From a virus, in IMG/VR virus record IMGVR_UViG_3300045988_105796: a DNA stretch of 64,000 nucleotides. One strand, given 5' to 3'. Below the pieces are notes generated by a model. That model had not been told where the DNA came from and did no database searches. It saw nothing but the letters and a program-made list of their open reading frames with translations. Below, piece by piece: positions 1,590 to 64,000 of this stretch. Positions within the stretch are counted from its first letter, which is position 1; every line of letters starts with the position of its first letter. A program made the position numbers and the translations under genes.

Positions 1590-1626
1590 GTTTATTAATA
1601 TTTAATTGTTATATTCTTTTATAGAA

Positions 1627-2559: not shown

Positions 2560-3442
2560 TATTTTGACGGAAATGATTTACTCTGTTTTTCTTAAAACAT
2601 AGAGTATACAAAGTCTTAGGAATAAATCCCATTGTATAGAGATAACCCAGGTACTTAATTAATCCCAATGCTAATTGTTCACTATATCTAGTGATATCTG
2701 TTAATTCCTGTGACTGTTTCCAAGGTTTATTCTTTAAGAAGTTTCTAGATATATTAATATGGTATGCTACTCCCCACAACATATGATCTTCGCAACGATG
2801 AAAATCTTTATTGCTAAATCTAAAAGCAGGTATATATGAATTTACATGATCTACATCTAAGCCCATATCTTCAATATTAGCTTCGCTTAGAAGATTATAT
2901 CGGTAGTCCATATCTTCTAATTCTTCTTCTTTACCTTCAAGATCAAACATATAACTACCTAATAACATTAGATCAAGCATATTCTCAACTTTATCTCTGT
3001 TAATTCTAGCTACTAAATCCTTTAATTTAGCATTAGCATAGTTATAAATATCTTTAATCTCAAGATTAGCATACATCAACAAAGCCATATAAAAAGCCAT
3101 AGCATCTGCCTGCTCTTCATTGGAATTCTGAAGATTATTAGCTACCATTTGCCATTCAGAATCACTAAAGGTTTGGTTATTAAAACCATGATCTTGATAC
3201 ATATCAATAACTGCAGAAGTAGATTCATAACCCTCTGCTGTTTCCTCAATTACTCTTGCAGAAAAATCCTTTAGTACCTGTTGACCTTTGAAAGTATTAA
3301 TATCAATAGGAGGTAGTGGTAGATCTTTTTCGATCTTACCACAATATCCTTGCAATAGTTCAGCCTCTAGATTATATATAGCTTCTAAATAAGCTTCCTT
3401 TTCTACTACTGTAGGTATTTCTCTAATATTTCTAATATCCAT
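2549..3442 (-). CDS. All-alpha NTP pyrophosphohydrolase (MazG / dimeric dUTPase-dCTPase-like)
   Basis: Acidic metal-binding motifs IEETAEGYE and NEEQADAMAF, plus a C-terminal LKNKPWKQ motif typical of dimeric dUTPase-type enzymes. It sits inside the nucleotide-metabolism cluster. Confidence 0.5.
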   Translation of the reverse strand: MDIRNIREIPTVVEKEAYLEAIYNLEAELLQGYCGKIEKDLPLPPIDINTFKGQQVLKDFSARVIEETAEGYESTSAVIDMYQDHGFNNQTFSDSEWQMVANNLQNSNEEQADAMAFYMALLMYANLEIKDIYNYANAKLKDLVARINRDKVENMLDLMLLGSYMFDLEGKEEELEDMDYRYNLLSEANIEDMGLDVDHVNSYIPAFRFSNKDFHRCEDHMLWGVAYHINISRNFLKNKPWKQSQELTDITRYSEQLALGLIKYLGYLYTMGFIPKTLYTLCFKKNRVNHFRQNSGY

Positions 3443-3445
3443 AGT

Positions 3446-4027
3446 TTAATCTCCCTCTATATCGCTTGGATGAGTTGGTTCATATGTTCTACCTCCTTTA
3501 TCACCAGAGCCAAATCCATTAGTACCTCTAGTTCCCCAATTCTTTGATTCCTTTTCATAGGTATCATTATCTATCTCTTCTGGATTTGTAAGATAGATAG
3601 GAGTATGAATCATCTGTACCAAAGGTTCTCCAGCATTTATAGTTACTACTTGAGATGAGGTATTATAAACTGCCAAGTTATATTCACCTACATAAGGAGA
3701 ATCACAAATCTGAGCAGTAAAGATCAAACCTAATTTAGTAGATTTGCCAGATTTATTAGCTACCATCATCATTGAATCTTTTGGCTCTAATAAACCCCTA
3801 ATACCTGAAGGAATCTTAATCCTTGACTGTGGTTTAAGGTGAATCATAGTAACCTTTCCACCTTTTATACTAATGTTGAAAGCAGAAGGATCTGGATTTG
3901 CTTCAAACAAGTCTCCAATAGTTAAATCAGTTGGTACATAGAAGTCTAAACCAGCATCTCCTTCATTGTGACGAGTTGGTGATTTAACCTCTCTTACTTT
4001 TGTAAATCTAAATTTTGTTGTTGACAT
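3446..4027 (-). CDS. dut: Trimeric dUTPase / dCTP deaminase superfamily enzyme
   Basis: GDAGLDFYVP, ANKSGKS, ICDSPYVGEY and GEPLVQM motifs in the canonical dUTPase order. Confidence 0.8.
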   Translation of the reverse strand: MSTTKFRFTKVREVKSPTRHNEGDAGLDFYVPTDLTIGDLFEANPDPSAFNISIKGGKVTMIHLKPQSRIKIPSGIRGLLEPKDSMMMVANKSGKSTKLGLIFTAQICDSPYVGEYNLAVYNTSSQVVTINAGEPLVQMIHTPIYLTNPEEIDNDTYEKESKNWGTRGTNGFGSGDKGGRTYEPTHPSDIEGD

Positions 4028-4295
4028 AATAATATATTATTTGATGTAAAACGTCTCCATAGGTAAGTTCATCTATCTCTTTATATGTAATAGGTATAAA
4101 ATCTTCAGTACCTACGATTTCTTCTAGTTTCTTATTTATATTTTTAATAAAACTACTAACGTCAGTTTTCTTCATAAATACTTTGATAAGTATATCAGAT
4201 TGCTGAACCATGTAGTTTGGATTATTCAAATACCTACAGAATAGATACCAGATATATGGTATCATTTCCTTTATTAGTCCTTCTTGTTTATTCAT
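4008..4295 (-). CDS. Hypothetical protein
   Basis: 95-aa ORF overlapping both neighbours (translational coupling). Confidence 0.6.
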   Translation of the reverse strand: MNKQEGLIKEMIPYIWYLFCRYLNNPNYMVQQSDILIKVFMKKTDVSSFIKNINKKLEEIVGTEDFIPITYKEIDELTYGDVLHQIIYYYVNNKI

Positions 4296-4666
4296 TTCAT
4301 TTCTTTATAAATTTTCCTGATAGTTTTAGTAGGTACTTCATATTTAGCAGAAGTCTTCTCTACTATTTTCTTCCTATCAAAACCTTTTCTCTTTAATCCC
4401 CTAATATATTTCTTAATTGCCTTAACATCTTCGAGGATTTCAAGATCCTTATAATTATTCTCTTCTTCTAATTGTTTACGAGTTTTACCTAATGTCTGAG
4501 ACATCTTCAAACAACATAACTCAGAATCTCCACACATCCTACACTCTTTAGTAGTAAGATTATAACCTTTACCAAAGCAAGGATCTTTATCAGTACCGAT
4601 CTTTGATAAATCAAATGGTTCCAGGGGATCATGTTTAAGTAAATCTACTCCTTTACTCTTTTTCAT
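4292..4666 (-). CDS. Hypothetical protein with a Cys cluster and a basic C-terminus
   Basis: CFGKGYNLTTKECRMCGDSELCC followed by a Lys/Arg-rich tail. Possibly a nucleic-acid binder. Confidence 0.6.
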   Translation of the reverse strand: MKKSKGVDLLKHDPLEPFDLSKIGTDKDPCFGKGYNLTTKECRMCGDSELCCLKMSQTLGKTRKQLEEENNYKDLEILEDVKAIKKYIRGLKRKGFDRKKIVEKTSAKYEVPTKTIRKIYKEMK

Positions 4667-5243
4667 TTTTTATACTTTTAATTCCTTTATTGCAAATAGT
4701 TCTTGTTAAATACTTCTTTCTATCCTCTTGATAGCCTTCTGTATTTGTATATCCACAACATTTCATCTCAGGACAAAACCCTCTATATAAACAGGAAGGT
4801 ACACAATAACGAGCAAGTATAGGCTCTATTTTAGATAGCTCATCTATAACCATATTCCAAGCTAATCTAGTTACTTTATCAGCTCGATTACATAATCTTA
4901 CCTTAGATATGTTAATAAGTTCTTGAGCATTCATATAGAGTATCATATTAACAGGATCTGTTTGTTTTCGTGTAGATCTATCAACTCCAGTTATATCTCC
5001 TCTTGAGGTTGATACAAAAGGCTGAGCATGTACATGTCTTACTAAGTGACCCATGTTACAATAAGGGATATCCTTTATAGTTATCTCAAAATTTAATAAC
5101 CTCAAAGGAGAGTGTTCAGCTACTATCATATCTTCCTTAAAATTCTTGGAAGGTTCTTTCATTAAAGGGGCAAGGTTCTGAGTGAACCTTGCTGCATTCA
5201 GTACATCATTCCAAGATGTTTTACGTATTACGTTTACTTGCAT
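4653..5243 (-). CDS. thyX: Flavin-dependent thymidylate synthase (ThyX)-like protein, divergent
   Basis: AEHSPLRLL and LVRHVHAQPFVSTSR resemble the ThyX HxSxxE and RHRxxSxxxxSxR motifs, but the second Arg and one Ser are substituted. The protein is only 196 aa. Confidence 0.5.
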   Translation of the reverse strand: MQVNVIRKTSWNDVLNAARFTQNLAPLMKEPSKNFKEDMIVAEHSPLRLLNFEITIKDIPYCNMGHLVRHVHAQPFVSTSRGDITGVDRSTRKQTDPVNMILYMNAQELINISKVRLCNRADKVTRLAWNMVIDELSKIEPILARYCVPSCLYRGFCPEMKCCGYTNTEGYQEDRKKYLTRTICNKGIKSIKNEKE

Positions 5244-38926: not shown

Positions 38927-40393
38927 TTATCTTGGTTTTGAATTTTGATCTTTTCTCTTAGGCATTGGTTTATTCTTATCCCTTACACCACGATCAGATT
39001 TAGATTTATCATCTTTTCTCTCCTTATCTTCTATACCTATTTTACCATTATTCTGTTGTTCAATAGGTACTCTTGGAGCTTCCTGATCTGGGCTATCATA
39101 ACCCATTTCCTGAGCATATTGTAACATAGATATGATACCATCTCTATATAAGGCATTAAGATTCTGTACCTTATATTGAGTAGCCTGTTGGATTTTTACA
39201 TCATCGGTTACAGTAGCAGGATTCCAAGTAATTTTAATACCTTTATTATTAAATCCAGCAAGTTGTAACTCTAAAGAATATAAGAATTCAAGTACACTAC
39301 CAACTAAACTCTGGATAACCTTTAATTGAGATATGAGTTTAGAAAGATTTATACCAGCTCCACCTTCTGTATTAGTATCAGTAACACCTAATAGTGTACT
39401 ATTTATACCAAGACCGTTAGCTACAGACTGTTGGTTCATTTTCCAAGGTATATCTAGATTACCCATATCTTGAGTAGTAGAATTGAGTTTGAATTCATGA
39501 TCTTCTTTATAACCAACTACCAAACCATCCTTCATACCCTCTTTCATACGTTTCTTGAGCTTAAGTAAATTAATTTCAAGACGACGTTCATATTGATTAG
39601 TACTTTCTGAAGGTCTCTGATCTGGTTTATCCATTAGCACTTCCATGAATCCCAATAGGCCAGCATTTTCCATGATATGTTTGAAATTTATTCTCATATC
39701 AGATTGACCTTTTAGAGAATCTAAGGCTGCCATAAAGGGAGGTATTCCATAAGGTTCATCTGTATCATTGTACATACCTACATATTTATATGTAAGAGTG
39801 TTCAATTTAATATAAGTATCTTTTCCTATAGCCAAGTTTGCATAACTTTTCTGATAAGGAATATATACTCCATCAGATTCCCTCTTGAACATTATACTGT
39901 CTGGTTTGATAAAAAGTACTGTAGATAAACCATCTAGATGTTGATTAGGTACTCCTTCTATAGATATAGCTCCACCAATTAGGAGTTGTACCATCATCTT
40001 ATTTACTAAACCATCAGTACCAGCAGTATAATTAGACCATCTTTTTGAAGCTTTCTTAAGGTGATCTACCATAGCTTCTGCTTCCTTACTAGTATTATTA
40101 GGAAAACCTATTCTATGTCCAGTATTAGCTAACTGATACATATCTTGTAAGGCTTTACTTACATCAGGATTTACCTTATATAAATTCCTAAGTAGTTGAA
40201 TAACTTCTACTCTAAATGAAGGATTTACCATTGTGTTAAAATCCTTCAAAGCATAAGTTAAACCATTACCATCTTCTGGAGCAGAAACTCTACCAGGATC
40301 TATTCCTGTAACTTTAGGTTTCTTTGGTTCAGTGTTACTAGTAGCATCTGGGTGTCCTCTAGTAACTGAAATGTTATAACCGAATATTTTCAT
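38927..40393 (-). CDS. Portal protein
   Basis: 488 aa, directly downstream of and overlapping TerL. Confidence 0.7.
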   Translation of the reverse strand: MKIFGYNISVTRGHPDATSNTEPKKPKVTGIDPGRVSAPEDGNGLTYALKDFNTMVNPSFRVEVIQLLRNLYKVNPDVSKALQDMYQLANTGHRIGFPNNTSKEAEAMVDHLKKASKRWSNYTAGTDGLVNKMMVQLLIGGAISIEGVPNQHLDGLSTVLFIKPDSIMFKRESDGVYIPYQKSYANLAIGKDTYIKLNTLTYKYVGMYNDTDEPYGIPPFMAALDSLKGQSDMRINFKHIMENAGLLGFMEVLMDKPDQRPSESTNQYERRLEINLLKLKKRMKEGMKDGLVVGYKEDHEFKLNSTTQDMGNLDIPWKMNQQSVANGLGINSTLLGVTDTNTEGGAGINLSKLISQLKVIQSLVGSVLEFLYSLELQLAGFNNKGIKITWNPATVTDDVKIQQATQYKVQNLNALYRDGIISMLQYAQEMGYDSPDQEAPRVPIEQQNNGKIGIEDKERKDDKSKSDRGVRDKNKPMPKRKDQNSKPR

Positions 40394-41889
40394 CGTGGTT
40401 GAATAATTATGTTTTGTTTACCTTTTCTAATATGATTACAGATAGCTTTGCCCATAATATCATCATCTGCATATACATCAGTTTCTAAACCGTCTTCAGA
40501 ATCAGAATTACTTTTATGTTTACCCATAGCTACAGGTCTACCTAAGCTATCATAAATAAAAGTCTTAGCCTCGTGAATAAAAAAAGGATCCTTTATAGTA
40601 GTTACTTCATTACGAATATCTGCTTCTAAACCATCAATGATAACGGGTCTGTTACTAGAAGTAGTAAGCCAACCTGGAGCTTTATCCATCTCAGGTCTTT
40701 TCTTACCTTTCTTCTTCAACATTTTCTGATAGTAATAAAGTTTAGGATATCCTTCATTCTGTAAAGCAGCAGTAACTGCTAAACCAACATCATTAGATTC
40801 AGGGGCTAAGGTAGCAAAGTTAAACAATCTACCAGTATCTCCAAGTAATATGGCATATTTATCTACAGGCATTCTACCCTTATATACTGCTTGTTCTTCT
40901 CCAATTTTATCCATACAGGTAAATGATGAATAATCGGAACCTCTACCAGTTGCAACGTCTGCTCCTATAAAATATTCTTTATTTTCCTCCGGTTCTAAGA
41001 ATTGAAGATATTGTCCATTATATCTACGTTTAATAATAGGATAGTCAGATATACAATCTTCTATGGCTTTAATATCAGCCATATCAAATACAGTATTACC
41101 AGAAGATAAAAAGTCTCCATCTATCTCTTGGGCAGTTCTTCTTGGTCCAAGAGCAGATGACATCTGTTCATACCAATCATCATCTCGTTCAGGGTGCATT
41201 CTCCAATATAATCTGAGGGCATTAAAAGGATTACCTCCAGTCAAAGCATTAACCCAAGTGTTATGGTAAAAATTAGCCATACCCATTGGAGTAGAATTAA
41301 CTATAGCTGATCCACCGGTAGATAGTGTTGGGAAAGCAGCTGCCCAAATTTGAGAAGCCCATCTTACGATAGCAGCCTCGTCAATTACCAAAAGAGTAAG
41401 AGATTCTGAACGACCTGCTTCAGATGAAGTAGGTATAGATTCTATGAAAGAGCCATTTGCAAACTCCATCATAGAAGATGATCCAAATTCTCCAGATCTA
41501 CCATTTATAATAGGTATCTGTAAGAAAGGAGGTAAGTTCTTATACATGAACTTAATCTTCTTTAGTACCTTTTTAGCAGTAGTATCTTTAATAGATATGA
41601 TGTTTATCTTAGAATTTGGATGGTACATAGCTAGCCATAAGCAGTACATAGAGATCAACTCTGTAATACCTGCCTGTCTGAACTTAAGTACGATGTTAAA
41701 CCTCTTAAGTACAAATTGGTAGAGTACAGCTTTTTGATAAGGATATAAATTAAAGTGTACTCTACCTCTTACAGGGTGTATCACATATATAAAGGCAGCA
41801 AAGAAAAATACATCTTGTACTACCTTAGATAATATACCTACCTGTTCACTAGTTAGACCTTGTGGAACTTTCAAATCTACTTTAGCCAT
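40390..41889 (-). CDS. terL: Terminase large subunit
   Basis: Walker A-like FRQAGITE, Walker B LLVIDEAA, NSTP coupling motif, and a C-terminal RNase H-like IGADVATGRGSDYSSF. Confidence 0.85.
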   Translation of the reverse strand: MAKVDLKVPQGLTSEQVGILSKVVQDVFFFAAFIYVIHPVRGRVHFNLYPYQKAVLYQFVLKRFNIVLKFRQAGITELISMYCLWLAMYHPNSKINIISIKDTTAKKVLKKIKFMYKNLPPFLQIPIINGRSGEFGSSSMMEFANGSFIESIPTSSEAGRSESLTLLVIDEAAIVRWASQIWAAAFPTLSTGGSAIVNSTPMGMANFYHNTWVNALTGGNPFNALRLYWRMHPERDDDWYEQMSSALGPRRTAQEIDGDFLSSGNTVFDMADIKAIEDCISDYPIIKRRYNGQYLQFLEPEENKEYFIGADVATGRGSDYSSFTCMDKIGEEQAVYKGRMPVDKYAILLGDTGRLFNFATLAPESNDVGLAVTAALQNEGYPKLYYYQKMLKKKGKKRPEMDKAPGWLTTSSNRPVIIDGLEADIRNEVTTIKDPFFIHEAKTFIYDSLGRPVAMGKHKSNSDSEDGLETDVYADDDIMGKAICNHIRKGKQNIIIQPR

Positions 41890-42725: not shown

Positions 42726-42801
42726 TTAGTGATTTACATTTTCTTAAACATATTCGTACGCGCTCGCATATACGCATATAAAGGCTAAAGGATATATATA
42801 T

Positions 42802-42863
42802 GGGTAATTTAATTAAATTAATATATCTAAAGATATATAATTAATTTAATAAATTATTACCCT
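42802..42863. repeat. Imperfect, roughly 30-bp AT-rich inverted repeat
   Basis: GGGTAATTTAATTAAATTAATATATCT / AGATATATAATTAATTTAATAAATTATTACCC. Confidence 0.6.
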
Positions 42864-42923
42864 AAAAAATATATCTAAAAATAATAATAAAAATTATATT
42901 CTGCCAGCGCTGCCAGAGGCCCT

Positions 42924-43014
42924 GAATAAGGATTAAATTTATAGGTACATTTTTAACCTATAACCTTATTCATCCTTCGGATGAAAGTAACTACCTCGTA
43001 AACTCGGTAGTTAC
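42924..43014 (-). terminator. Cluster of three consecutive hairpins after the methyltransferase gene
   Basis: GAATAAGG..TTATAGGT-loop-ACCTATAA-CCTTATTC; then CATCC-TTC-GGATG; then GTAACTACC-10 nt-GGTAGTTAC, which overlaps the stop codon. Confidence 0.5.
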
Positions 43015-45418: not shown

Positions 45419-45826
45419 ATGGAAATCTTAAAAACAAATGACCAAGTCCTCTATTATGATGGTAAAACTATCTTAGAGTTAACTACTGTAATTCAGGAAT
45501 TAGAGGATTCAACAGTTAAACTCAGCAATGGAGTTATCTGTAGTAATGAACCAGTTAAAAAATCTGGTAACTACAAAAGGAAAGATCACCTTAAAGGATC
45601 TAAGTTCCAAGGTTGGATCAAAAAATATGAAGGTCCTTTAGAGGATATTTACCAAGCCAATCTTTTCCTTAAAAGTTATAAGAAGAAGATTGATAATTTG
45701 AAGGTAGATCTTAATTGTATCAAACTATCAGATCTTATCTATGGTAATGTATCTGCCCAGGAAGTATTAAACATTAGTAAGTCACTCAATAAAATCATAT
45801 CTAAATGCAAACCGTTTGTAAAATAG
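45419..45826 (+). CDS. Hypothetical protein
   Basis: 135-aa ORF, first gene of the plus-strand cassette. Confidence 0.6.
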   Translation: MEILKTNDQVLYYDGKTILELTTVIQELEDSTVKLSNGVICSNEPVKKSGNYKRKDHLKGSKFQGWIKKYEGPLEDIYQANLFLKSYKKKIDNLKVDLNCIKLSDLIYGNVSAQEVLNISKSLNKIISKCKPFVK

Positions 45827-46011
45827 TACTCTGGATTTATCTTATATGTCTTCCAATTTCTCTAATTCTCACCGTAATAAGAGAATATCAGAATTATAAG
45901 GTTAAGGATGCTCCTAATAAAGTATTAGGATTCATATATCACTTCATCACCGTTTGGTTAATTACACCTTTCTTCGTAGTTCACTTAGTTACTAATAAAA
46001 TAAGGAGATAA
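45805..46011 (+). CDS. Small membrane protein
   Basis: 68 aa with two TM helices. Confidence 0.5.
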   Translation: MQTVCKIVLWIYLICLPISLILTVIREYQNYKVKDAPNKVLGFIYHFITVWLITPFFVVHLVTNKIRR

Positions 46012-46016
46012 AGATT

Positions 46017-46328
46017 ATGAGGTTATTTTTCGATAGGAATTTCAGGTTTGGGGGATACTCCCAAACCCCTCAGGAATTATTTGATGGGTACTCAAGGTTA
46101 GCTGGTACTGGTTGCGTATGGGCATTTATCACTATCTTAGGACCTATGGTAGGAATAGGTATGTTATACCTATTGAATAAATCTGATAAGGAAGCTGCAG
46201 TATTAAGGGCAAAGGGAAGGAAAGGTCCTTATGCTACACCAGTTCCTAAATCAGACTATGCCTTAGCATGGTTTTATATCCTGGTAGGTATCATCTGCTG
46301 GGTAGGTATGTATAGTTATTTACGTTAA
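46017..46328 (+). CDS. Membrane protein
   Basis: 103 aa with two TM helices. Confidence 0.55.
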   Translation: MRLFFDRNFRFGGYSQTPQELFDGYSRLAGTGCVWAFITILGPMVGIGMLYLLNKSDKEAAVLRAKGRKGPYATPVPKSDYALAWFYILVGIICWVGMYSYLR

Positions 46329-46339
46329 AATTAAGTAGT

Positions 46340-46819
46340 ATGATTTGTAAGAAGTGTTTATGTAATTATGAGTTAGATGATTTTGATCCTAACTTACTGA
46401 TCCCTAATATTATGAAGGAAAAGGGGTTCTGTTTTAATTGTGCCTATTGGAGTTACCGTCATCAGAATCTGTATCATTTACCAGATTTTAAGAGACCGGA
46501 GGATTTAGGTTATGTAGAAACTAAATTAGCAACCCTAACTATTGCAGATACATTGCAGGTAGTGGATAATAACTTCGAAATGATTACCTTGCATATAAAT
46601 AGGCCTGCTCCAATTAATATGAACCAGCAACCTATTTATCAAGTACAGGGTAAAGAGGGAACCTACCTATTCAACGTAAATAGGGTAACATTCCAAGGTA
46701 AGATTAGTCTTAAGGAACATTTTATACCTAATGCAATATGCTTAGATAATGATGTAGCTCTAGAATTAATTGATAGGCAGTCAACTAAAATCATTAACCA
46801 TTTATATTATAAGTTATGA
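46340..46819 (+). CDS. Hypothetical protein with an N-terminal Cys4 cluster
   Basis: CKKCLC...CFNCAYW. Confidence 0.55.
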   Translation: MICKKCLCNYELDDFDPNLLIPNIMKEKGFCFNCAYWSYRHQNLYHLPDFKRPEDLGYVETKLATLTIADTLQVVDNNFEMITLHINRPAPINMNQQPIYQVQGKEGTYLFNVNRVTFQGKISLKEHFIPNAICLDNDVALELIDRQSTKIINHLYYKL

Positions 46820-47088
46820 AGTTCCGAGTAGTAGAAGTAGATAGTTATCATTCTAACGTTATTAAGGTTTGGTATGAATCTCCTAACCTTACCACTAATG
46901 ATATCATAGGTGAATTGGAGAAACGTTATGAAAGGGTATTAATAGATTTAGCAGAAAGCTATGACCTATTCCATAGGAGCAAGGATCTAGAGACCCAGTA
47001 TACCGAAGATAACGTTACCTGGCATTATTATGGAGATACCTATATCGATTATGTAAATTCTAATTTATTTGAGGGTTATTTGAGATGA
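46816..47088 (+). CDS. Hypothetical protein
   Basis: 90-aa ORF with overlapping stop/start. Confidence 0.55.
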   Translation: MKFRVVEVDSYHSNVIKVWYESPNLTTNDIIGELEKRYERVLIDLAESYDLFHRSKDLETQYTEDNVTWHYYGDTYIDYVNSNLFEGYLR

Positions 47089-47447
47089 TAGAAGTATATT
47101 GGTTATTACATTGGGATAATGAACATCAGATGTTTATTGCCTATCCTAAATCTAAGGATTTAATAGAATCAAGTGATAAGAGTTTATATACCTTACTTGA
47201 TAATATAAGGAGGTATACAGTAAATAGAATGGATACTATTAATCACTATGGTAAGGATATATGTATTTATTACTATATTGATGAGGAATTTATGGATAGG
47301 GTTAAAGTATTAGAAGGTATGACCAAATTTAAGTTTAGTGTATTAGCTAAGTTTGTAGTAGTTTGGTTATTCGCTTTAGGTATTACTATCGGTTTGGTAG
47401 GTTATATCCTGGTAATGTTGGGAGTTATTACCTTTTCAGGTTTATAG
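47085..47447 (+). CDS. Hypothetical protein with a C-terminal double TM anchor
   Basis: FVVVWLFALGITIGLVGYILVMLGVITF. Confidence 0.55.
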   Translation: MIEVYWLLHWDNEHQMFIAYPKSKDLIESSDKSLYTLLDNIRRYTVNRMDTINHYGKDICIYYYIDEEFMDRVKVLEGMTKFKFSVLAKFVVVWLFALGITIGLVGYILVMLGVITFSGL

Positions 47448-48600: not shown

Positions 48601-48703
48601 AAAATTGCTTTCTTTCGTTTTTTATTTTAATTAGTATTTTCAGTTAGACGATTGAAAGACTTTAGATGTTAACTAACTTTCTAATACTTTTGTTTTTTAA
48701 TTA

Positions 48704-48740
48704 CAATGCAAAGATACGGACTATTTTTTTATTATGCAAA
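48704..48740 (-). promoter_or_regulatory. Bacteroidota-type promoter cassette
   Basis: The minus strand reads TTTGCATAATAAAAAAATAGTCCGTATCTTTGCATTG, G-to-G spacing 28 nt. Confidence 0.6.
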
Positions 48741-49524
48741 TATTTTAGAGAAAATTTTTAGAAAAATCTTCATTTTTGATATAAATCAAGAAAAAATTTA
48801 TTTTTTAATTTTTTAATTATAAAAATTTGCATATTTCAAAATTTATATTATTCACGTGCGTACGTGTATATACATTATATAATATAGAATAGTATTTGAA
48901 AAATCTATATAAACCCTTTTATTTGCGTTTTAAGCGTTTATTTTTTCAAAGAAGTATAATTTTATATCTAAAAATTTTTATAAGCTAATTTCTAATTTTA
49001 TATATTTATCTAATTATATTTTTATTTTTTCAAATATTTATATTTTTAGATTTTTGCTTAAAAATGTAAATATATTTTTGCATAAAAAGTTGGCAGGGAT
49101 GGGGAGGGGATTTGAGGCAAAGTTGTGTAAAATTGGGGCCATTGTTGGTGTATGGTAGTTTTTGTAAGGCGCCTTTATGGATAGTGGCAGGGGTTGTGGC
49201 CAAGCCGGCCCGGGTTTTGTGAAAAGTTCCTGTTAAATTTCGATTTTTCTTCTAAGCAATATATGTATATATGGAAGGTAGTTGGTAATGGGTAAAGTGT
49301 AAATTGATAATTGGGTAACTCAGATAGGAACTGGGATAAGCTTTTTAGGTAACTTGGATTAGCGATATTTCAAATATTGGAGGGCTCATGGTATTAGTCT
49401 AGTGCTTTATATTATGCTTTATATTAATTTGCTTTGCCTGCAAACTTGCCTATTACTATGTAACTCAGATAGCGAAATTAGGAAATATATTAAGGCCATT
49501 AACTGTACCTATGCTACATATAAT

Positions 49525-49554
49525 AAAAAGCCCTTATGAGGAATATCATAAGGG
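49525..49554 (-). terminator. Rho-independent terminator
   Basis: Perfect 9-bp stem CCCTTATGA / TCATAAGGG, followed on the minus strand by CTTTTTATTAT. Confidence 0.65.
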
Positions 49555-49566
49555 TTAGAGTTGGAT

Positions 49567-49836
49567 TTACCAATTGAATGTGAAGGAATTGCCTTCTGGA
49601 GAAGCTTCCCAGTTAAAGTTGTATAGGAGTTCTGGATTTTCTGAGTGATCCATCCAGTTAGCGATGGTATCATCGAGTTCTGCCTGTTCGTCTTCTGTTA
49701 GAGAAGTGTAAGATCTGAATGTTAGAGAGTTCTCTGAGAGGTGAAAGTCATAGAATTCTTCTAGATTGTTTGATAGAGTAGAGATGAGTTCTAGAACTTC
49801 CTGTAGGATCTGGGGATTTAATTTAATTGTTTGCAT
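49567..49836 (-). CDS. Small acidic early protein of the MQTIKLN family
   Basis: Its N-terminus MQTIKLN is shared with the 51148-51447 gene. Confidence 0.6.
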   Translation of the reverse strand: MQTIKLNPQILQEVLELISTLSNNLEEFYDFHLSENSLTFRSYTSLTEDEQAELDDTIANWMDHSENPELLYNFNWEASPEGNSFTFNW

Positions 49837-49879
49837 AATTGTAAAAATTTAATTTGTTAATACTATATTATTTAATCCA

Positions 49880-49913
49880 TTGCAAAGATACTAATAAATT
49901 TTTAATCTACAAA
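49880..49913 (-). promoter_or_regulatory. Bacteroidota-type promoter cassette
   Basis: The minus strand reads TTGTAGATTAAAAATTTATTAGTATCTTTGCAA, spacing 27 nt. Confidence 0.55.
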
Positions 49914-50021
49914 GAAAATCTATTATTAATTTATATATTAAGTGGGCCTTTGATGGTATCTTGAGATAGGTTATGTTCACAGTTAAGCCTGGATTTGTTA
50001 GGTCCAGGCTTAAGAGTTTGA

Positions 50022-50578: not shown

Positions 50579-50613
50579 TTGCAAAGGTAGTAATAATATT
50601 TTAATTATACAAA
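50579..50613 (-). promoter_or_regulatory. Bacteroidota-type promoter cassette
   Basis: The minus strand reads TTTGTATAATTAAAATATTATTACTACCTTTGCAAAG, spacing 28 nt. Confidence 0.6.
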
Positions 50614-51147: not shown

Positions 51148-51447
51148 TTAGTAAACTTCTAATGTAAATTTGTAAATCCTAGCTTTTTTGTCATGATTAG
51201 TGTAAATGTCTCCAGCATTATCAGGATCAAGTATAGATGCTAGTGTAGCATTATCCTCTGAATTCAGTCTGTTGATAGATCTGATCTCCCAGTACCATTT
51301 AGATCCGCCCCATTCGAGATTAGGATCTGTAATGTCTTCCAGAGTGATTGTTTGAACTGTTAAGCCGAGAGCTTCAATATCCTTGATTTGTGAAAGGATT
51401 AGTTCCAGTGTTTCTGGATTAGTTGTGTTTAATTTGATTGTTTGCAT
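51148..51447 (-). CDS. Small early protein of the MQTIKLN family
   Basis: N-terminus MQTIKLN. The 5' end of the gene and its leader resemble those of the 49567-49836 gene. Confidence 0.6.
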   Translation of the reverse strand: MQTIKLNTTNPETLELILSQIKDIEALGLTVQTITLEDITDPNLEWGGSKWYWEIRSINRLNSEDNATLASILDPDNAGDIYTNHDKKARIYKFTLEVY

Positions 51448-51489
51448 AATGTTGTTTTATTAATTAATACTATATTATATAATTTCATG

Positions 51490-51524
51490 TTGCAAAATTA
51501 CTATATTTATTTTATATATGCAAA
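51490..51524 (-). promoter_or_regulatory. Bacteroidota-type promoter cassette
   Basis: The minus strand reads TTTGCATATATAAAATAAATATAGTAATTTTGCAA, spacing 28 nt. Confidence 0.6.
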
Positions 51525-51539
51525 TTATTTATTAAATAT

Positions 51540-53060
51540 TTATTTCCTACTAGAGCTCTGAAGATCTAACTAAGGCTATAGAAGCCTCTAAGGCCATCAA
51601 TAGTAAATATGTATATCTCAAAAGGTGAGGCCATCAATAGTATATGGAAAGTCCTCAAAAAATTGAGGCTATTCAACGTACACATGCGTTGTAGTGTAAA
51701 TGGCTTACTAAATAGTATTTGAGGCCTTATATCCCTAATTCCTATTATAGTTAAGTCCCCAGGGCCTATATCTATTACTATAGCAGAGCCTTGAACCAAC
51801 TAAATATCTCCTGCTCAACTAACAAAACAAAGGTAAACCTAAAAACCTAACGCAGTTCTTCTAGTACTTATATAGATATATTATATAAGTAACTTAGATA
51901 GCTCTTTTAGTAAAACTGAGTTAGCTTTCCTTGATATTAGATTTTAATCCTGAGATTAAGTTTTATCGTCAACCTTTAATCCTAATCCTTTAATCCTAAT
52001 CGCCTATATTATATTCCCTACGTAAATATAATATATTCATATTTAGTCCTTGCCTTATACCTTAAAGTATCAATCTACTATCTTCTACTATATGTAGCTA
52101 TAGATTTCTGCTTATTCTCCTAATATGCTTCTTGTCTAGAGCTCTATTTTTAATTTTTAGTATAATTATATGGAGCGTTATTGGGTATTTTTCTAAGAAT
52201 AGGCAATATTTTGGGGCCTTGAATGGTATAAATTTAATCTAAATAGGCTCCGAGATTTATTAAATTTAGGTATAAATATTGCCTATTTGGGGCCTTAAAT
52301 CGTTAAATCCTTTGCCTAGAAAGGCCCTATTTTTATTAAAAATGTACCTAATTTTAGCCTAAAATGGCCCCTAATTTTGTAAAATCTTTTTACTTTTTAG
52401 GCCTTTTTGAGCCCTAAAATGTACCTATTTTGGCTCTGGGATTTAATAAAAATTGCCCCAAAATGTACACTAAATCCTTAAAATTTTGCCTAAATCCTTT
52501 GCCTAAAATTGCCTAAATCCTATAAAAAATGTACCCCAAATCCCTTAAATCCCAGTCCAGGATTTAATAAAAAATGTACATTTTTAGGCAATATTTTGAG
52601 CCTTTTTAGGTACATTTTTGAGGCCTTCCTGGGGTACATTTTTGATGTACATCAAAAATGACAAAAGCTGTCAAACTGAGCCATATTGTTACAGTAGTTG
52701 CTAGGGGTTTACACATCTCATCGAACTCATCCTAAATCCCCGGGGCACCCCCAACATACACAAACGCTCAGTTTATCTACTTCCTGATTATCTTAGATAT
52801 ATCAAAGTCTACTTTTTGTCTAAGCCTAAAATGTACATAAAACACAAAAATAAAAGGGAACCTAAAACATTAACCTTAGTTCTCTTTATATTATATATAT
52901 TACTACTTATATTTATTTATTAGGATTTTTGTTTGTTTGGGGTTGAAGCTCTTCTATATGTGTTAAGTCTTTCATGTATTCTTGGTGTTTTTAGATTGAG
53001 ATGATACATAAGTAATCCCAGTATCTTTATGTAGGATCTGTGATACTGGGATTTGTGATT
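51540..53060. repeat. ORF-free region dense in short word repeats and palindromes. Candidate origin, packaging site or genome terminus.
   Basis: At least 6 copies of AAAATGTAC and at least 2 of its complement GTACATTTT. There are many copies of GCCTAAA(A/T) / TTTTAGGC, TAAATCC, GAGGCC and GGCAATATTTT in both orientations. The only ORF here is a 77-aa one that looks spurious. Confidence 0.7.
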
Positions 53061-53078
53061 AGATTATAATAACTTCAT

Positions 53079-53438
53079 TTATCTTTGTTTGGGGTTAGAC
53101 TCTGGTGAGGGTTGTGTATTGGGCATTGGTGTTATCTTTAAGAGTAGTAGATATACGCTTTGTATATTTACTTGGTTTAGGTTTGGGATTATGGCTTTTA
53201 CATCCTCTCTTACTTCTTCGTTAGTGTAGAAGAAATTTCTTGGTAGGATATGATGGAAGAGGTTGTACTGGGCTTCTGATATGTAATTTAAGGCTTTCTC
53301 TTTAGAATAACCTAAGACTGCTGGAGAGAGATTGCTTATAGAATAATCGAAATTCTCTAGTAGTGCTTCTAGAAGTTCTCTATATTCTGGAGATAAATCC
53401 TTTAGATAGTTGTTTACTATTGCTGTATTTAGTTTCAT
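53079..53438 (-). CDS. Hypothetical early protein
   Basis: 119-aa ORF, last gene of the 55.25-53.08 kb operon. Confidence 0.55.
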   Translation of the reverse strand: MKLNTAIVNNYLKDLSPEYRELLEALLENFDYSISNLSPAVLGYSKEKALNYISEAQYNLFHHILPRNFFYTNEEVREDVKAIIPNLNQVNIQSVYLLLLKITPMPNTQPSPESNPKQR

Positions 53439-54153: not shown

Positions 54154-54894
54154 TTAATCATTCTCTAAATCATTGTACATTGCTTCTACATAGTTAACTA
54201 TGCGTTCATATTCTCTTCCAGAAACCAGGGTATCCAGGTTTGCCTTATCTATTAGTTCTGTACTAGTACCGTAGAAGCAGCCTACTGCCCACATTCTGTT
54301 TGACCTGGTGTATGTAAATGATCTTCCACTTGACCAAATATTCTTTCCTACGTAGTAGTCTCCATTTTTACTAATTTCTGCATGACCTTTGATCTCTGCT
54401 TGGTATCCAACTTCTGCATCTCCATAAATCCTAGCATCCTCATAAATCTTAGCATTGCCAAATACCTTAGTATTCCCATAGACCTGAGCACTGCCATATA
54501 CTAGTGACTTATTAGAGATACTAGCATTTCCATAGATTTTAGCATCATCATAGACTTCAGAATCTCCGTATACTCCAGCAGTATCAAATACTTCAGCCTT
54601 TCCATAAATTTGAACATTGTCTAGTATCTCTGCATATCCGTATACCTTTGCATGTTCACATATTTGGACATTATCCATAATTCTAGCATTTCCAGATACT
54701 TCAGCCTGATCATATACCTTAGCATCATCGTGGATCCAACAATCACCCTCATGACTAAGATTTTTTTCATTTTCTATATAGCCTCCTCGTTGTCCTTTTT
54801 TAATTCTTCCAAAGTCTCTTACAGCTTCTATCCTGTACAGCTTGTGATATTCAAATTCAATTACCTGATCTTCAATTAATTTATACTTTTGCAT
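54154..54894 (-). CDS. Hexapeptide-repeat (left-handed beta-helix type) protein
   Basis: 20 contiguous hexads (AKVYDQ AEVSGN ARIMDN VQICEH AKVYGY ... AEIKGH AEISKN), flanked by non-repetitive N- and C-terminal domains. Confidence 0.65.
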   Translation of the reverse strand: MQKYKLIEDQVIEFEYHKLYRIEAVRDFGRIKKGQRGGYIENEKNLSHEGDCWIHDDAKVYDQAEVSGNARIMDNVQICEHAKVYGYAEILDNVQIYGKAEVFDTAGVYGDSEVYDDAKIYGNASISNKSLVYGSAQVYGNTKVFGNAKIYEDARIYGDAEVGYQAEIKGHAEISKNGDYYVGKNIWSSGRSFTYTRSNRMWAVGCFYGTSTELIDKANLDTLVSGREYERIVNYVEAMYNDLEND

Positions 54895-54906: not shown

Positions 54907-55248
54907 TTAGAAGGTTAATATTAAAGTGATTCTTGAAAGCTTCTCTTTATTAGAGATGATTTTTATCTTAGCACTGATGTTGCAATCGTAGTCTTTAGCA
55001 TATTCAGTGTAGTCCAAGATTTCATCCAGGTAGTTTTCTGGAGTTCCCTTGATAGGTTCTTCTGATGTGTCCCATATAAGTAATTCATATAGGATAGTAT
55101 CCTCTGTTAGAAGAGGTTGAGTTGTAGTAACTTTGAGGATTTGAATGTTACTATTCATGTAATTCATTTTGAGAGTGTTAATCTCCCTTTGAATAGTTTC
55201 AGTGTCCAGATAAGCTGGAGTGTTGTTTTTAATAATTGTTGTTTGCAT
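54907..55248 (-). CDS. Small early protein, distant MQT-family member
   Basis: N-terminus MQTTIIKNN. It is the first gene after a promoter cassette. Confidence 0.55.
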   Translation of the reverse strand: MQTTIIKNNTPAYLDTETIQREINTLKMNYMNSNIQILKVTTTQPLLTEDTILYELLIWDTSEEPIKGTPENYLDEILDYTEYAKDYDCNISAKIKIISNKEKLSRITLILTF

Positions 55249-55292
55249 ACTCTTTAATTTTTTATTCGTTAATATCTTAATTATTAATTATA

Positions 55293-55326
55293 TTGCAAAT
55301 TTACTATTTTATTTTTAATTATGCAA
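55293..55326 (-). promoter_or_regulatory. Bacteroidota-type promoter cassette
   Basis: The minus strand reads TTGCATAATTAAAAATAAAATAGTAAATTTGCAA, spacing 28 nt. Confidence 0.6.
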
Positions 55327-55360
55327 TATAATTAATAATTAATTTATAAAAAGCTGAGGA

Positions 55361-60155: not shown

Positions 60156-60190
60156 TTGCAAAATTAATACTTTATTTTTAATCGTGCAAA
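60156..60190 (-). promoter_or_regulatory. Bacteroidota-type promoter cassette
   Basis: The minus strand reads TTTGCACGATTAAAAATAAAGTATTAATTTTGCAA, spacing 28 nt. Confidence 0.6.
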
Positions 60191-63661: not shown

Positions 63662-64000
63662 TTACTTCTTCTTCTTACCCTTACCTTTCTTTGCAGTAGG
63701 AAGTTTGATACCAAGTTCCTTAGCTACTGCCTTGCGGAGCTTATCTACATCTTCCTCATCGTAATCATCTGGATCGGTGTCAAGCTCTTTGTCATCGCAA
63801 ACATCCTCGAGTTCCTCAAAATCCATTTCCTGGAGAGCCTCTGCAGTAAGTGGTTCCTCCTCTTCTTCCTCATCGTCTTCGTCAGAATCCTCTTCCTCAT
63901 CGTCTTCGTCAGAATCCTCATCGTCATCGTCTTCGTCAGAATCCTCTTCCTCATCGTCTTCGTCAGAATCCTCTTCCTCATCGTCTTCGTCAGAATCCTC
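63662..64000 (-). CDS. Poly-acidic tandem-repeat protein, C-terminal part; the 5' end lies beyond the right edge
   Basis: Manual translation gives EDSDEDDEEEDSDEDDEEEDSDEDDDDEDSDEDDEEEDSDEDDEEEEEEPLTAEALQEMDFEELEDVCDDKELDTDPDDYDEEDVDKLRKAVAKELGIKLPTAKKGKGKKKK*. The ORF-track entry 63745-63981 is a different frame of the same repeat. Confidence 0.7.
   Translation of the reverse strand, partial: EDSDEDDEEEDSDEDDEEEDSDEDDDDEDSDEDDEEEDSDEDDEEEEEEPLTAEALQEMDFEELEDVCDDKELDTDPDDYDEEDVDKLRKAVAKELGIKLPTAKKGKGKKKK
63871..64000. repeat. 27-nt in-frame tandem repeat (at least 5 units, one a variant)
   Basis: The unit CATCGTCTTCGTCAGAATCCTCTTCCT repeats up to the window edge. Confidence 0.85.

Follow-up and report, generated by a model that had tools for sequence, protein, structure and literature searches.

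What does a phage whose genes are otherwise tightly packed keep in a gene-free stretch of about 1.6 kb? The stretch (positions 51448–53078, hereafter the gap) belongs to the early region in a Bacteroides-type phage of the gut, in a piece of DNA that was analysed over its full 64,000 nucleotides (the window); the remaining 13.7 kb of the genome was assessed through a relative. No other non-coding feature of the phage's unannotated region is as large as the gap. A first-pass annotation had described it as an ORF-free, repeat-dense segment and listed a replication origin, a packaging site, a genome terminus and a regulator-binding array as candidate functions. The gene order of the phage matches that of the 'Flandersviridae', its genome measuring approximately 77–78 kb where the family median is 85 kb (PMC8008677). 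In that family a contractile-tail block is followed by DnaB, DnaG and PolA and then by approximately 20 kb of unknown ORFs, the hosts are Bacteroides or Parabacteroides, and the frequency of detection in the human gut, as described in 2021, is similar to that of crAss-like phages (PMC8008677). The 2021 paper left those approximately 20 kb unannotated and mentions no non-coding locus (PMC8008677), and no description of the gap element was found in the literature searched. A Bacteroidota host is consistent with the presence of a Shine–Dalgarno-like motif in 10 of 78 genes and with the occurrence of TTTG/TAnnTTTG promoters. Phages of this kind are abundant, judging by records of the thymidylate synthase-like protein (840–1589), which was present in 76 collection blocks, 54 of them with contigs of 50–200 kb.

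The gap is best explained as a cis-acting DNA element and not as a gene. TAA, TAG and TGA each occur in all six frames, and comparison with relatives revealed no conserved ORF, which together rule out a recoded gene; the longest ORF, of 77 amino acids with a TTG start, is absent from relatives. The description of the stretch as ORF-free therefore stands. No tRNA or tmRNA was found in the gap, and Rfam yielded no match at gathering score anywhere in the window and none at E ≤ 5 in the gap. The genes on either side (53079–53438 upstream, 51148–51447 downstream) are both on the minus strand, so that, as first proposed, this is not a divergent-promoter region. Two elements mark its edges:

53017–53050, minus strand: hairpin CCCAGTATC ... 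GATACTGGG, just past the stop codon of gene 53079–53438, read from the sequence; upstream edge of the gap

51493–51524, minus strand: Bacteroidota promoter TTTG-N20-TAATTTTG for gene 51148–51447; downstream edge of the gap

The hairpin is conserved and has a minus-strand fold z-score of −4.4, and in one relative (L008) both arms are changed, to CCCTGTATC/GATACAGGG, with pairing kept. It has no T-run after it, so it can be called only a putative terminator. The canonical Bacteroidota promoter pattern matched 10 times where 2.7 matches were expected, five of the 10 lying upstream of minus-strand genes, and the pattern scan found no full consensus inside the gap itself. We also considered TATATAAGTA as a genome-wide late promoter and rejected it, as its copies beyond the gap fall inside genes.

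Most of the distinctive sequence is concentrated in one part of the gap, which proved to have a regular architecture:

52205–52634, no strand: degenerate 11-bp tandem array of approximately 39 units, defined by periodicity, register print, logo and curvature

52571–52584, no strand: palindrome AAAATGTACATTTT, the point at which polarity flips, from word orientations, inverted-repeat pairs and the register print

52637–52660, no strand: perfect 24-bp palindrome CATTTTTGATGTACATCAAAAATG at the array edge (inverted-repeat pair I11)

All of the words and coordinates listed in the first-pass annotation are present, nearly all of them within the array, and one copy had been missed (that of GTACATTTT at 52576). 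AAAATGTAC occurs at 52339, 52416, 52460, 52526, 52571 and 52828, and GTACATTTT at 52576, 52610 and 52634. GCCTAAA is found five times in the gap and TTTAGGC twice; GGATTTAATAAAAA lies at 52439 and 52560, GGCAATATTTT at 52202 and 52587, AAATATTGCC at 52274, GGCCATCAATAGTA at 51592 and 51629, and TTTAATCCTAATC at 51975 and 51989. Counting both strands, AAAATGTAC is present 12 times in the window, compared with 0.89 ± 0.91 in shuffled sequences (none of 100 shuffles reached 12), and nine of the 12 copies fall within 52339–52836. The description of the array as iteron-like is upheld, the repeats being far beyond chance and retained in every relative. The spacing, however, is not irregular as had been thought: successive distances between AAAATGTAC copies are 77, 44, 66 and 45 bp, of which the first three are multiples of 11 (factors 7, 4 and 6) and the last exceeds four such steps by 1 bp. 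An 11-bp lattice underlies the words, the whole core being a degenerate tandem array. It is not a CRISPR array, as had been correctly noted, the units being 11 bp, contiguous and degenerate rather than spaced, near-identical repeats of 24–48 nt.

Each unit consists of a 4–5 bp G/C block followed by a 6–7 bp A/T tract, with a minus-strand consensus of approximately TAGGCAAAATT or TAGGTACATTT and a logo of 3.6 bits; Tandem Repeats Finder picks up only a 22-bp fragment of the array. When the sequence is printed in rows of 11 nt, the G/C blocks keep their columns. A periodogram of G/C versus A/T peaks at 11.0 bp with a power of 32 (median 4.9, 99th percentile 10.4), and A/T-tract phasing at 11.0 bp lies 13.6 SD above background; this is by far the strongest periodicity of the 64 kb. 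Because each unit spans one helical turn, the G/C blocks face one side of the helix and the DNA is expected to be intrinsically bent. In agreement, all eight of the most curved 126-bp windows predicted in the 64 kb lie in the array. With a period of 11.0 bp, relaxed DNA is predicted to adopt a shallow superhelix; only underwinding would turn it into a planar loop, and with slight underwinding the array is predicted to close into loops of approximately 250 bp. The array also has polarity, with approximately five units running one way (52585–52634) and approximately 34 the other (52205–52570). Inverted-repeat pairs I2–I10 are centred on the GTAC-centred palindrome at which the orientation flips, and GTAC-centred palindromes bound the array.

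We compared the locus across 11 related contig stretches that reach it, from phages of approximately 77–78 kb. A gap of 1.34–1.65 kb is found at the same place in all 11, and it occurs in two non-homologous forms. Form A carries the 11-bp array, the lattice being present in every form A relative, while form B carries four AT-rich dyads centred on TATATATA, with inverted arrays of AAATCC/ATCACAAA words on their flanks. The clearest comparison is between L007 and L008, which are 97% identical across 10.8 kb upstream and across 4.4 kb farther downstream and share no homology over approximately 950 nt in the cassette; an all-against-all comparison gave the same split. Outside the cassette, 22 kb of the two are 92–97% identical, with the exception of the gene just downstream of the gap (85%). 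As judged by these alignments, the two cassette forms are swapped between phages that are otherwise 97% identical. The alignments, together with repeat searches, divide the remainder of the gap as follows:

52841–53016, no strand: variable spacer, C/A-rich and then AT-rich (TATAAGTAGTAATATATATAATATAAAG); the least conserved part of the gap

52688–52840, minus strand: module 1, a unique segment common to both allelic forms

51643–52687, no strand: exchangeable cassette of approximately 1.05 kb; in form B phages an unrelated sequence takes its place

52010–52200, no strand: non-repetitive 190-bp block with the palindromic word TATAGCTA, adjoining the array; better conserved than any other part of the gap

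52005–52037, no strand: AT-rich inverted repeat ATATTATAT-N12-ATATAATAT, read from the sequence and invariant in the form A alignment

51973–52001, no strand: short tandem repeat of CCTTTAATCCTAAT, TTAGGATT-type words, from Tandem Repeats Finder

51862–51894, no strand: AT-rich palindrome AGTACTTATATAG...TATATAAGTAACT, followed by GTTAGGTTTTTAGGTTTACCTTTG on the minus strand, from the sequence and repeat pairs

51643–51861, minus strand: module 2, a unique segment of form A only, from the alignment of form A relatives

51592–51642, minus strand: two copies of TACTATTGATGGCC, the point at which the two forms become homologous again and a repeated promoter element starts

Module 1 aligns between the forms at 74–78% identity, with the consensus TTTAGGATTTGACAAAAAGTAGACTTTGATATATCTAAGATAGTCAGGAAGTAGCTAAACTGAGCGTTTG...GGGGG-N4-6-GGGGATTT...ACTGTAACAA, and homology between L007 and L008 ends directly after CTGTAACAA within it. 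At the other end, the homology boundary falls on the TACTATTGATGGCC motif; two of the three GATGGCC copies present in the 64-kb window lie in 51592–51642. Module 2, which holds the 77-amino-acid ORF, is 84–96% identical among form A relatives, and RNAalifold detected no covariation in either module. The spacer is 50–91% identical to relatives, with many indels. The short tandem repeat at 51973–52001 (period 14, 2.1 copies, 100% matches) is built of TTAGGATT-type words, a vocabulary common to form B; TTAGG and GGATT are enriched 5–10-fold in both forms. The palindrome at 51862–51894 pairs (D7, D9, D11 and D16) with a similar element approximately 1020 nt away at 52847–52922, and there is a further AT-rich stretch at 52880–52930. 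The invariant inverted repeat at 52005–52037 is a candidate for an easily melted spot.

Conservation is uneven. The array is 90–94% identical among relatives and the 190-bp block 94–98% identical in all five form A relatives, the block having no conserved ORF and no significant fold. Four-fold degenerate sites in the flanking genes are 85–89% identical in close relatives and 62.5% identical in L008. The array and the block thus evolve more slowly than flanking four-fold sites, whereas much of the rest of the gap changes at about the neutral rate or above it. Length differences in the array among relatives are 11, 11, 11, 44, 77 and 88 nt, with two further values of 23 and 56. Substitutions in the array show no preference for keeping the G/C-versus-A/T pattern (0.24 versus 0.37 at four-fold sites), so selection for that pattern is not seen in the substitution spectrum. 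The gap itself is kept in both forms and across three backbone lineages, with four-fold identity down to 62.5%. Form B shows neither curvature nor an 11-bp period, and curvature therefore cannot be a trait common to both forms; its dyad arms retain the words but not the register.

Beyond these relatives the element is hard to find. No GenBank phage matched the gap at the DNA level, IMG/VR scans found one relative, and a 20-mer from module 1 gave only four chance matches among JGI metagenome contigs. The closest phage by portal protein, MT121964 (56% amino acid identity), has no equivalent gap and no 11-bp signal. Words of the same vocabulary do occur upstream of early promoters in this distant relative, and also at 42945–42953 in the intergenic region before the late genes, where they track the phage backbone and not the cassette type.

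Candidate partner proteins were sought in the flanking genes and the rest of the genome. The genome encodes a family A DNA polymerase, a DnaB-type helicase, a primase, gp32, a RecA-like protein, a flap endonuclease and SbcCD, and Pfam and PHROG searches recognised no initiator gene of the Rep or O type in the flanking genes or elsewhere in the genome. The same searches recognised no DNA-binding domain and no small terminase among the early proteins. The 119-amino-acid upstream neighbour of the gap is constant, and its AlphaFold model is weak (pLDDT 68, pTM 0.42); Foldseek against the PDB returned nothing below E = 5, and we set the protein aside as an array binder. No gene within 10 kb on either side co-varies with cassette type. 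The gene just downstream of the gap and the 170-amino-acid acidic protein it encodes were likewise rejected as a cassette partner since they do not sort by form. DnaA boxes (TTATCCACA, with at most one mismatch) are absent from 51448–53078, their count across the window being that expected by chance, while GC skew, which tracks the coding strand, is uninformative.

We favour an origin, or a binding array for a regulator or architectural protein, as the class of function that fits this anatomy, in line with two of the original suggestions. More specifically, we tentatively propose that the gap is a cis-acting, protein-binding DNA array and probably a replication origin or origin enhancer, a reading that is plausible but held at well short of even confidence. 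The anatomy, the phasing, the conservation and the exchange of the two forms are observed; what we infer for the array is protein binding, wrapping and a role in origin function. An oligomerising DNA-binding protein, of the phage or the host, would start at the palindromes and spread over one face of the array, wrapping the DNA; this wrapping would help to open the adjacent AT-rich DNA, and the locus would serve as an early origin or origin enhancer. A T4-like recombination set (gp32, RecA/UvsX-like and SbcCD-like proteins) would then carry replication on, and form B would represent another design for a site of this type. Origin-type features are present at the sequence level: AT-rich inverted repeats (52005–52037 and 51862–51894) adjoin the array, and direct and inverted iteron-like words flank the palindromes. 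Only one other sizeable ORF-free stretch exists, the shorter and extremely AT-rich 48601–49566, and with no initiator recognised, the origin must be somewhere like these two places; 48601–49566 is an equally plausible candidate. Against the origin reading we count the lack of a cognate initiator, of DnaA boxes and of any gene co-varying with the cassette, the uncurved form B, the lack of any preference for the G/C-versus-A/T pattern among substitutions and the near-neutral rate of much of the gap.

The closest analogues are the oriE repeat cluster of phage T4 and the injection stop signal (iss) region of phage T5. T4 oriE contains a cluster of regularly spaced 12-nt direct repeats in the early region, its position is kept in related phages, and it depends on a host-type early promoter, T4 later replicating by recombination (PMC3016281). 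The likeness lies in a repeat cluster in the early region whose place is kept in relatives, and in the gp32, RecA/UvsX-like and SbcCD-like proteins encoded here. The differences are that oriE has far fewer repeats and sits among the repEA and repEB genes, the role of its repeats being unproven, whereas the array described here has approximately 39 degenerate 11-bp units, a polarity flip at a palindrome and a 1.6-kb gene-free setting. Iteron origins such as R6K gamma, P1, F and lambda ori combine short-repeat arrays, intrinsic bending and adjoining, easily melted AT-rich DNA, and their specificity is exchanged as a module. The array, its predicted bending, the AT-rich neighbouring DNA and the exchangeable cassette all resemble this arrangement. 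Iterons, however, are 17–22 bp long, present in 4–9 well-conserved copies and accompanied by a nearby Rep or O gene, in contrast to the approximately 39 shorter and much more degenerate units (3.6 bits) found here, with nine GTACATTTT words and no initiator gene found.

Tandem repeats of about one helical turn are also found in ParR/parC centromeres: R1 parC, for example, has ten 11-bp iterons, and the cooperative spreading of a small protein along such repeats wraps the DNA as a superhelical scaffold. The present array is four times longer and the phage looks lytic; no parM, parA or parR gene was found in the window or, through the relative, in the remaining 13.7 kb. Phased A-tract DNA, as in kinetoplast minicircles and upstream of strong phage promoters, likewise has A/T tracts once per turn and strong curvature, but with a period of 10–10.5 bp rather than 11.0 bp, and the array here is 430 bp long and approximately 700 bp from the closest recognisable promoter. 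Two other classes of element were dismissed: RNA families in Rfam, including the large phage RNAs GOLLD and ROOL, gave no covariance-model match, and type III toxin–antitoxin RNA repeats (ToxI-like) have a period of approximately 36 nt, not 11, and lie beside a toxin gene, no adjacent toxin family being detected here.

Several other explanations deserve weight. An array of the same kind could have a role outside replication: it might act between early operons as an insulator or a silencer, titrate a nucleoid protein or a regulator of the phage or the host, or set the timing of early transcription by pinning a supercoil loop. This is a real possibility, if an unlikely one. The anatomy fits it equally well, the gap is bounded exactly by the hairpin that closes one early operon and by the promoter element belonging to the operon after it, and the same-vocabulary words upstream of MT121964 early promoters and at 42945–42953 would suit it; yet no regulator was found, the array is approximately 700 bp from the nearest canonical promoter, and L007 and L008 have the same early genes despite the different architecture of the two forms. 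We regard it as rather unlikely that the gap instead specifies non-coding RNA, either one long or two small minus-strand transcripts acting, for example, as a decoy against host defence, with the two forms as alternative RNA cargoes in an accessory hot spot. TAnnTTTG motifs on the minus strand (52852 and 51835), both preceded by similar GTTA-GTTTT-AGGTT boxes, would be compatible with such transcripts, as would the G-rich words mainly on the minus strand, a C-G to G-U change in one module 1 helix of L008, and cassette-type variation, which is typical of phage accessory loci. But the TAnnTTTG motifs are not retained in relatives, the 3' half of the module 1 helix is missing from form B, and covariation terms of +0.59 and +0.72 lend no support. 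Besides the absence of any Rfam match at E ≤ 5, form B gave only chance hairpin matches to microRNA models. Sliding fold z-scores are alike on both strands, as DNA dyads would give, the dyad arms of form B do not keep register, and an 11-nt lattice that reverses polarity at a palindrome belongs to DNA in double-stranded form. It is doubtful, too, that the gap is largely non-functional spacer, an 11-bp minisatellite with palindromic debris that expanded between early-gene cassettes shuffled via repeated promoter elements, in a genome where headful packaging tolerates extra DNA. Length changes in multiples of 11 bp are expected from slippage or unequal exchange without selection, and the neutral or faster rate of much of the gap, the substitution spectrum and the shuffling of downstream genes among relatives all fit. 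Such a spacer would nevertheless have to persist at the same size and place in every relative, in both forms and three backbone lineages, within an otherwise tightly packed genome, and the array and 190-bp block change more slowly than four-fold sites.

Two further alternatives concern the handling of genome ends. The T5 iss corresponds to Repeat Region 3 of the left terminal repeat, within a 10-kb terminal repeat, and Davison proposed paired DnaA boxes in this region as the conserved core of the site (10.1101/866236). A comparable cis site here, halting or anchoring the entering DNA after the first early genes, would suit a gap of the same size and texture lying among small early genes with strong host-type promoters, and if packaging started near 42.8 kb the gap would be approximately 9–10 kb from the first-entering end. 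We nonetheless find this distinctly improbable. The assemblies behave as circular, paired DnaA boxes are absent, no A1/A2-like genes were recognised, and both non-homologous forms would have to act as stop signals; the lattice here, moreover, is a strict 11 bp, and the T5 site lies in a terminal repeat, whereas the ends available here are those of metagenome contigs. These ends cluster in the relatives at approximately 63880–64000, a coding tandem repeat, or at 42726–43010, an intergenic region with an AT-rich palindrome and poly-T directly upstream of the gene preceding the large terminase gene, and these sequence features explain the clustering without physical termini. One short contig of 3.5 kb (L023) does end right where the gap starts, 132 nt beyond the gene upstream. 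A packaging site (pac or cos) or terminal-repeat junction, which the first-pass annotation had kept in play, is very improbable indeed. Some pac sites, such as that of Bacillus phage SPP1, do carry bent, repeat-rich DNA, and it remains true that no small terminase is recognisable in the 64-kb window, the gene before the large terminase having no Pfam or PHROG small-terminase match. However, all 11 contig stretches that reach the gap run through it and the large terminase gene (40390–41889) is approximately 9.5 kb away, which makes a terminus or packaging site unlikely; the cassette is, in addition, exchanged between phages with otherwise near-identical DNA.

Returning to the array as protein-binding DNA, and to an origin or origin enhancer as its tentative function, the gap offers a concrete, testable candidate for the phage's origin or another cis-acting control site. 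The 11-bp lattice is an unusually clean natural case of sequence-encoded DNA curvature, extending over approximately 430 bp, and two non-homologous forms at one locus amount to a natural swap experiment. A more speculative idea, which we consider improbable, is that the cassette is a self-contained, exchangeable unit of DNA architecture that controls how the entering or resident genome is kept in the cell and does not require a cognate phage gene. The approximately 40 helical-turn units of form A would encode a loop or superhelix of approximately 250 bp by which a host factor, or a site on the membrane or nucleoid, would be captured, and the palindrome arrays of form B would do the same differently, the possible purposes being staged entry of the DNA, as in T5, or keeping a long-lived episome anchored and segregated. 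If this were true, the two forms would represent specificity or incompatibility types, and the cassette could help to explain the persistent, non-lysogenic carriage of common gut Bacteroides phages.

The stretch 51448-53078, which the first-pass annotation singled out as an ORF-free, repeat-dense gap, was re-examined, and all of the words and coordinates reported for it were correct. Each stop codon is present in each frame of 51448-53078, and the longest ORF (77 aa, TTG start) is absent from relatives, leaving no conserved ORF. No tRNA was found in the gap, nor any Rfam match at the gathering score or at E ≤ 5. The flanking genes read in the same direction, as noted, and the features of the locus are as follows.

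53079-53438, minus strand: upstream gene
53017-53050: hairpin after the upstream gene
52841-53078: upstream-edge segment
52688-52840: module 1
52637-52660: perfect 24-bp palindrome
52571-52584: palindrome AAAATGTACATTTT, at which unit polarity flips
52205-52634: 11-bp array
52010-52200: unique block
51901-52009: spacer
51643-51861: module 2
51524-51493, minus strand: canonical promoter for the downstream gene
51148-51447, minus strand: downstream gene

On the two strands combined, the window contains 12 copies of AAAATGTAC, compared with an expected 0.89; nine of the 12 fall within 52339-52836. Their spacing, previously described as irregular, is in fact set by an 11-bp lattice on which the words lie (AAAATGTAC spacings of 77, 44, 66 and 45 bp). 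When the minus strand of the array (52634 to 52205) is broken into approx. 39 lines of 11 nt, G/C bases fall in the first 4-5 columns and an A/T tract follows them. In the G/C-versus-A/T periodogram the peak lies at 11.0 bp with a power of 32 (window median 4.9, 99th percentile 10.4), and the phasing of A/T-tract centres, also at 11.0 bp, stands 13.6 SD over the window background. The units conform roughly to TAGGCAAAATT or TAGGTACATTT, a consensus with only 3.6 bits of information, so that Tandem Repeats Finder detects just a 22-bp array fragment. Curvature was calculated with an approximate wedge model, which predicts that the eight 126-bp windows with the highest curvature in the 64 kb all lie inside 52270-52650; with twist at 11 bp per turn, 252-bp windows in the array are predicted nearly to close to a circle. 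A 6-bp periodicity peak at approximately 54350 comes from the gene at 54154-54894, whose hexapeptide-repeat (left-handed beta-helix) product strongly matches phrog_7964 (PHROG, E = 2e-91) and is the only early-region protein of clear family.

Relatives were taken from the contigs of 21 homologues of the upstream-gene protein and the one IMG/VR relative, yielding 11 more stretches that include the gap (L001, L007-L011, L013-L016, L021 and L022, with the gaps of L009 and L010 identical and those of L014 and L021 differing at one position); seven of them belong to contigs 76.7-78.5 kb long. In 11 of 11, an ORF-free gap of 1.34-1.65 kb directly follows the upstream gene. The gaps sort into two groups with almost no common sequence. 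Form A (the window, L001, L008, L009/L010, L015 and L016) can be aligned end to end at 75-89% identity, and every member has the 11-bp signal (period 10.9-11.0, power 25-30 in the relatives); array length ranges from 423 to 531 bp, with differences of 11, 11, 11, 44, 77 and 88 nt, plus 23 and 56. Form B (L007, L011, L013, L014/L021 and L022) has no GTACATTTT array, no 11-bp period and no predicted curvature. It carries instead four dyads centred on TATATATA, whose left arms consist of AAATCC and ATCACAAA words and whose right arms consist of GGATT and TTTGTGAT. Common to both forms are the first approximately 150 nt (module 1), a 5-10-fold enrichment of TTAGG and GGATT(T), and the boundary motif TTGATGGCC, which is the start of the downstream gene's promoter element. 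In one lineage a further 128-aa gene lies after the conserved upstream gene and before the gap-opening hairpin (L011 10437-10823, L013 10380-10766); as several relatives, these two included, also have a 128-aa gene immediately upstream of the conserved gene, the additional one may have arisen by duplication or relocation of an early gene.

The exchangeable part, or cassette, spans 51643-52687. L007 (form B) and L008 (form A) have an identical upstream protein and share 97% identity over 10.8 kb upstream and 4.4 kb further downstream, yet approximately 950 nt of their gaps are non-homologous and identity drops to 85% in the next gene. The 170-aa downstream protein of L008 is nearest to a homologue in a form A phage of another lineage, so the cassette and downstream gene were seemingly imported as a segment. 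This acidic protein does not sort by form, and none of the other genes in the 22-kb contig covaries with the cassette. The cassette thus seems to be self-contained, unless it works with a host factor or with a gene in another part of the genome. Repeated promoter elements of approximately 100-140 nt lie upstream of several small early genes (51427-51567, 49817-49938, 48682-48747 and 55221-55347, with further promoters at 50582-50613 and 60159-60190), several with the Bacteroidota TTTG-N19-21-TAnnTTTG consensus. The genes behind them are shuffled among relatives, which suggests that the elements serve as recombination joints.

Constraint was gauged by comparing identity to the window, region by region, with four-fold degenerate sites of the flanking genes (85-89% in close relatives, 62.5% in L008). 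The array (90-94%) and unique block (94-98%) exceed this level, so constraint is concentrated on approximately 650 bp, 52010-52665; modules 1 and 2 and the spacer are close to the four-fold sites, and the upstream-edge segment falls below them. Array substitutions show no bias towards conserving the G/C-versus-A/T class (0.24 versus 0.37 at four-fold sites), and it is therefore repeat structure rather than visible base-composition selection that maintains the lattice.

The window covers most of the genome of a contractile-tailed phage (GC approx. 32%), with nearly all genes on the minus strand. Genes for a DnaB-type helicase, primase, SF2 helicase and nucleotide metabolism lie at 0.8-11.4 kb, and those for the large terminase, portal, protease, major head protein, sheath, tape measure and baseplate at 14.6-41.9 kb. 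The part beyond the window was read in a relative that shares an identical protein; it encodes a family A DNA polymerase, gp32, a RecA/UvsX-like protein, flap endonuclease and SbcCD, and no recognisable initiator. The gene order matches that of the 'Flandersviridae' of human gut metagenomes, in which a structural block is followed by DnaB, DnaG and PolA and then approximately 20 kb of unknown ORFs (PMC8008677); the gap sits within the block of unknown ORFs. A Shine-Dalgarno-like motif is present for only 10 of the 78 genes. There are 10 copies of the Bacteroidota promoter consensus TTTG-N17-23-TAnnTTTG in the window where 2.7 would be expected, and five of the copies are upstream of minus-strand genes (48740, 49913, 50613, 51524 and 60190). 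The only sizeable strand switch is a block of five small plus-strand genes at 45419-47447, within which the cumulative GC skew reaches its minimum (approx. 45-46 kb). At 840-5243, a ThyA-type gene (840-1589) and a weak ThyX-like gene (4653-5243), both thymidylate-synthase-like, accompany two dUTPase-like genes (2549-3442 and 3446-4027). This cluster hints that the phage may replace or hypermodify thymine, in which case the array A/T tracts would have altered physical properties.

Across the window and the out-of-window stretch, the sole other sizeable ORF-free region is the shorter 48601-49566, conserved at 775-993 nt across all relatives. In minus-strand order, a T-run hairpin after the gene at 49567-49836 is followed by approximately 450 nt of C-rich sequence, then approximately 400 nt at about 15-21% GC with the palindrome CACGTACGCACGTG, ending at a canonical promoter (48740-48709). 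This region ranks among the most curved 252-bp windows in the approximate wedge model.

A packaging site or terminus, as first proposed for the gap, is extremely improbable: all related stretches that reach it run through, and the large terminase gene is approximately 9.5 kb away. One short contig of 3.5 kb (L023) does stop 132 nt past the upstream gene. Five relatives' contigs end, as the window does, in a coding tandem repeat at about 63880-64000, and three end in the intergenic region 42726-43010; the repeat, and the palindrome and poly-T of the latter region, are ordinary causes of assembly breaks. The repeat has units of approximately 36-39 nt encoding acidic runs (EDSDEDDEEE...) and runs off the window end, its gene ending at about 63665. 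Region 42726-43010, between a cytosine methyltransferase gene and the unannotated gene preceding the large terminase gene, contains an AT-rich palindrome of approximately 60 nt (approx. 42815-42880), a long poly-T run in the lineage whose contigs end there, and the only non-coding AAAATGTAC outside the gap (42945-42953); in one lineage AATCCTAATCAC words occupy this spot regardless of cassette form. A packaging signal is more likely here than in the gap. The gene before the large terminase has no match to any family; the earlier remark on the small terminase thus holds, without implicating the gap.

We favour a DNA element over an RNA, since one unit per helical turn and a polarity flip at palindromes are what would be expected of a double-stranded DNA site. 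The hairpin at 53017-53050 has changed on both arms in L008 with pairing kept. A non-coding RNA locus is distinctly unlikely: between this hairpin and the promoter at 51524-51493 neither strand has a full promoter consensus, two minus-strand TAnnTTTG motifs at 52852 and 51835 are not retained in relatives, RNAalifold covariation terms (+0.59 and +0.72) give no support, and fold z-scores are similar for both strands. Moreover, form B lacks the 3' half of module 1's only long predicted helix, and its dyad arms retain words while losing register. On the plus strand, a near-consensus promoter at 53044-53087 (TTTG-N24-TATCTTTG, spacer 3 nt over length) is directed antisense into the upstream gene. 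Among DNA elements, one like the T5 injection stop signal, whose region is also repeat-dense and non-coding (1662 bp; 10.1101/866236), is very improbable. A largely neutral minisatellite spacer is improbable, and a binding array with a regulatory or architectural role outside replication is unlikely.

The explanation that fits best, though held tentatively, is an early replication origin or origin enhancer. It would account for iteron-like repeats arrayed in both orientations about palindromes, strong predicted bending, the conserved unique block, AT-rich inverted repeats, and a genome with a T4-like recombination set and no recognised initiator. A protein would extend its binding along one face of the array and so help to open the adjacent DNA. 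The nearest precedent is T4 oriE, in the early region and dependent on an early promoter, with evenly spaced 12-nt repeats whose function is still unproven (PMC3016281). Against an origin, no partner protein was found for the array, the gap has no DnaA boxes, the two forms differ in architecture, and the very AT-rich region 48601-49566 is an equally plausible candidate.

Short-repeat arrays and curved DNA are known kinds of feature at phage origins and control regions. We found no prior description of this element in the searchable literature; what is new is the scale and strictness of its 11-bp lattice, the predicted ring-forming curvature of the array, the occupation of a single conserved locus by two exchangeable forms that are not homologous, and its occurrence in an abundant, little-studied group of gut phages.
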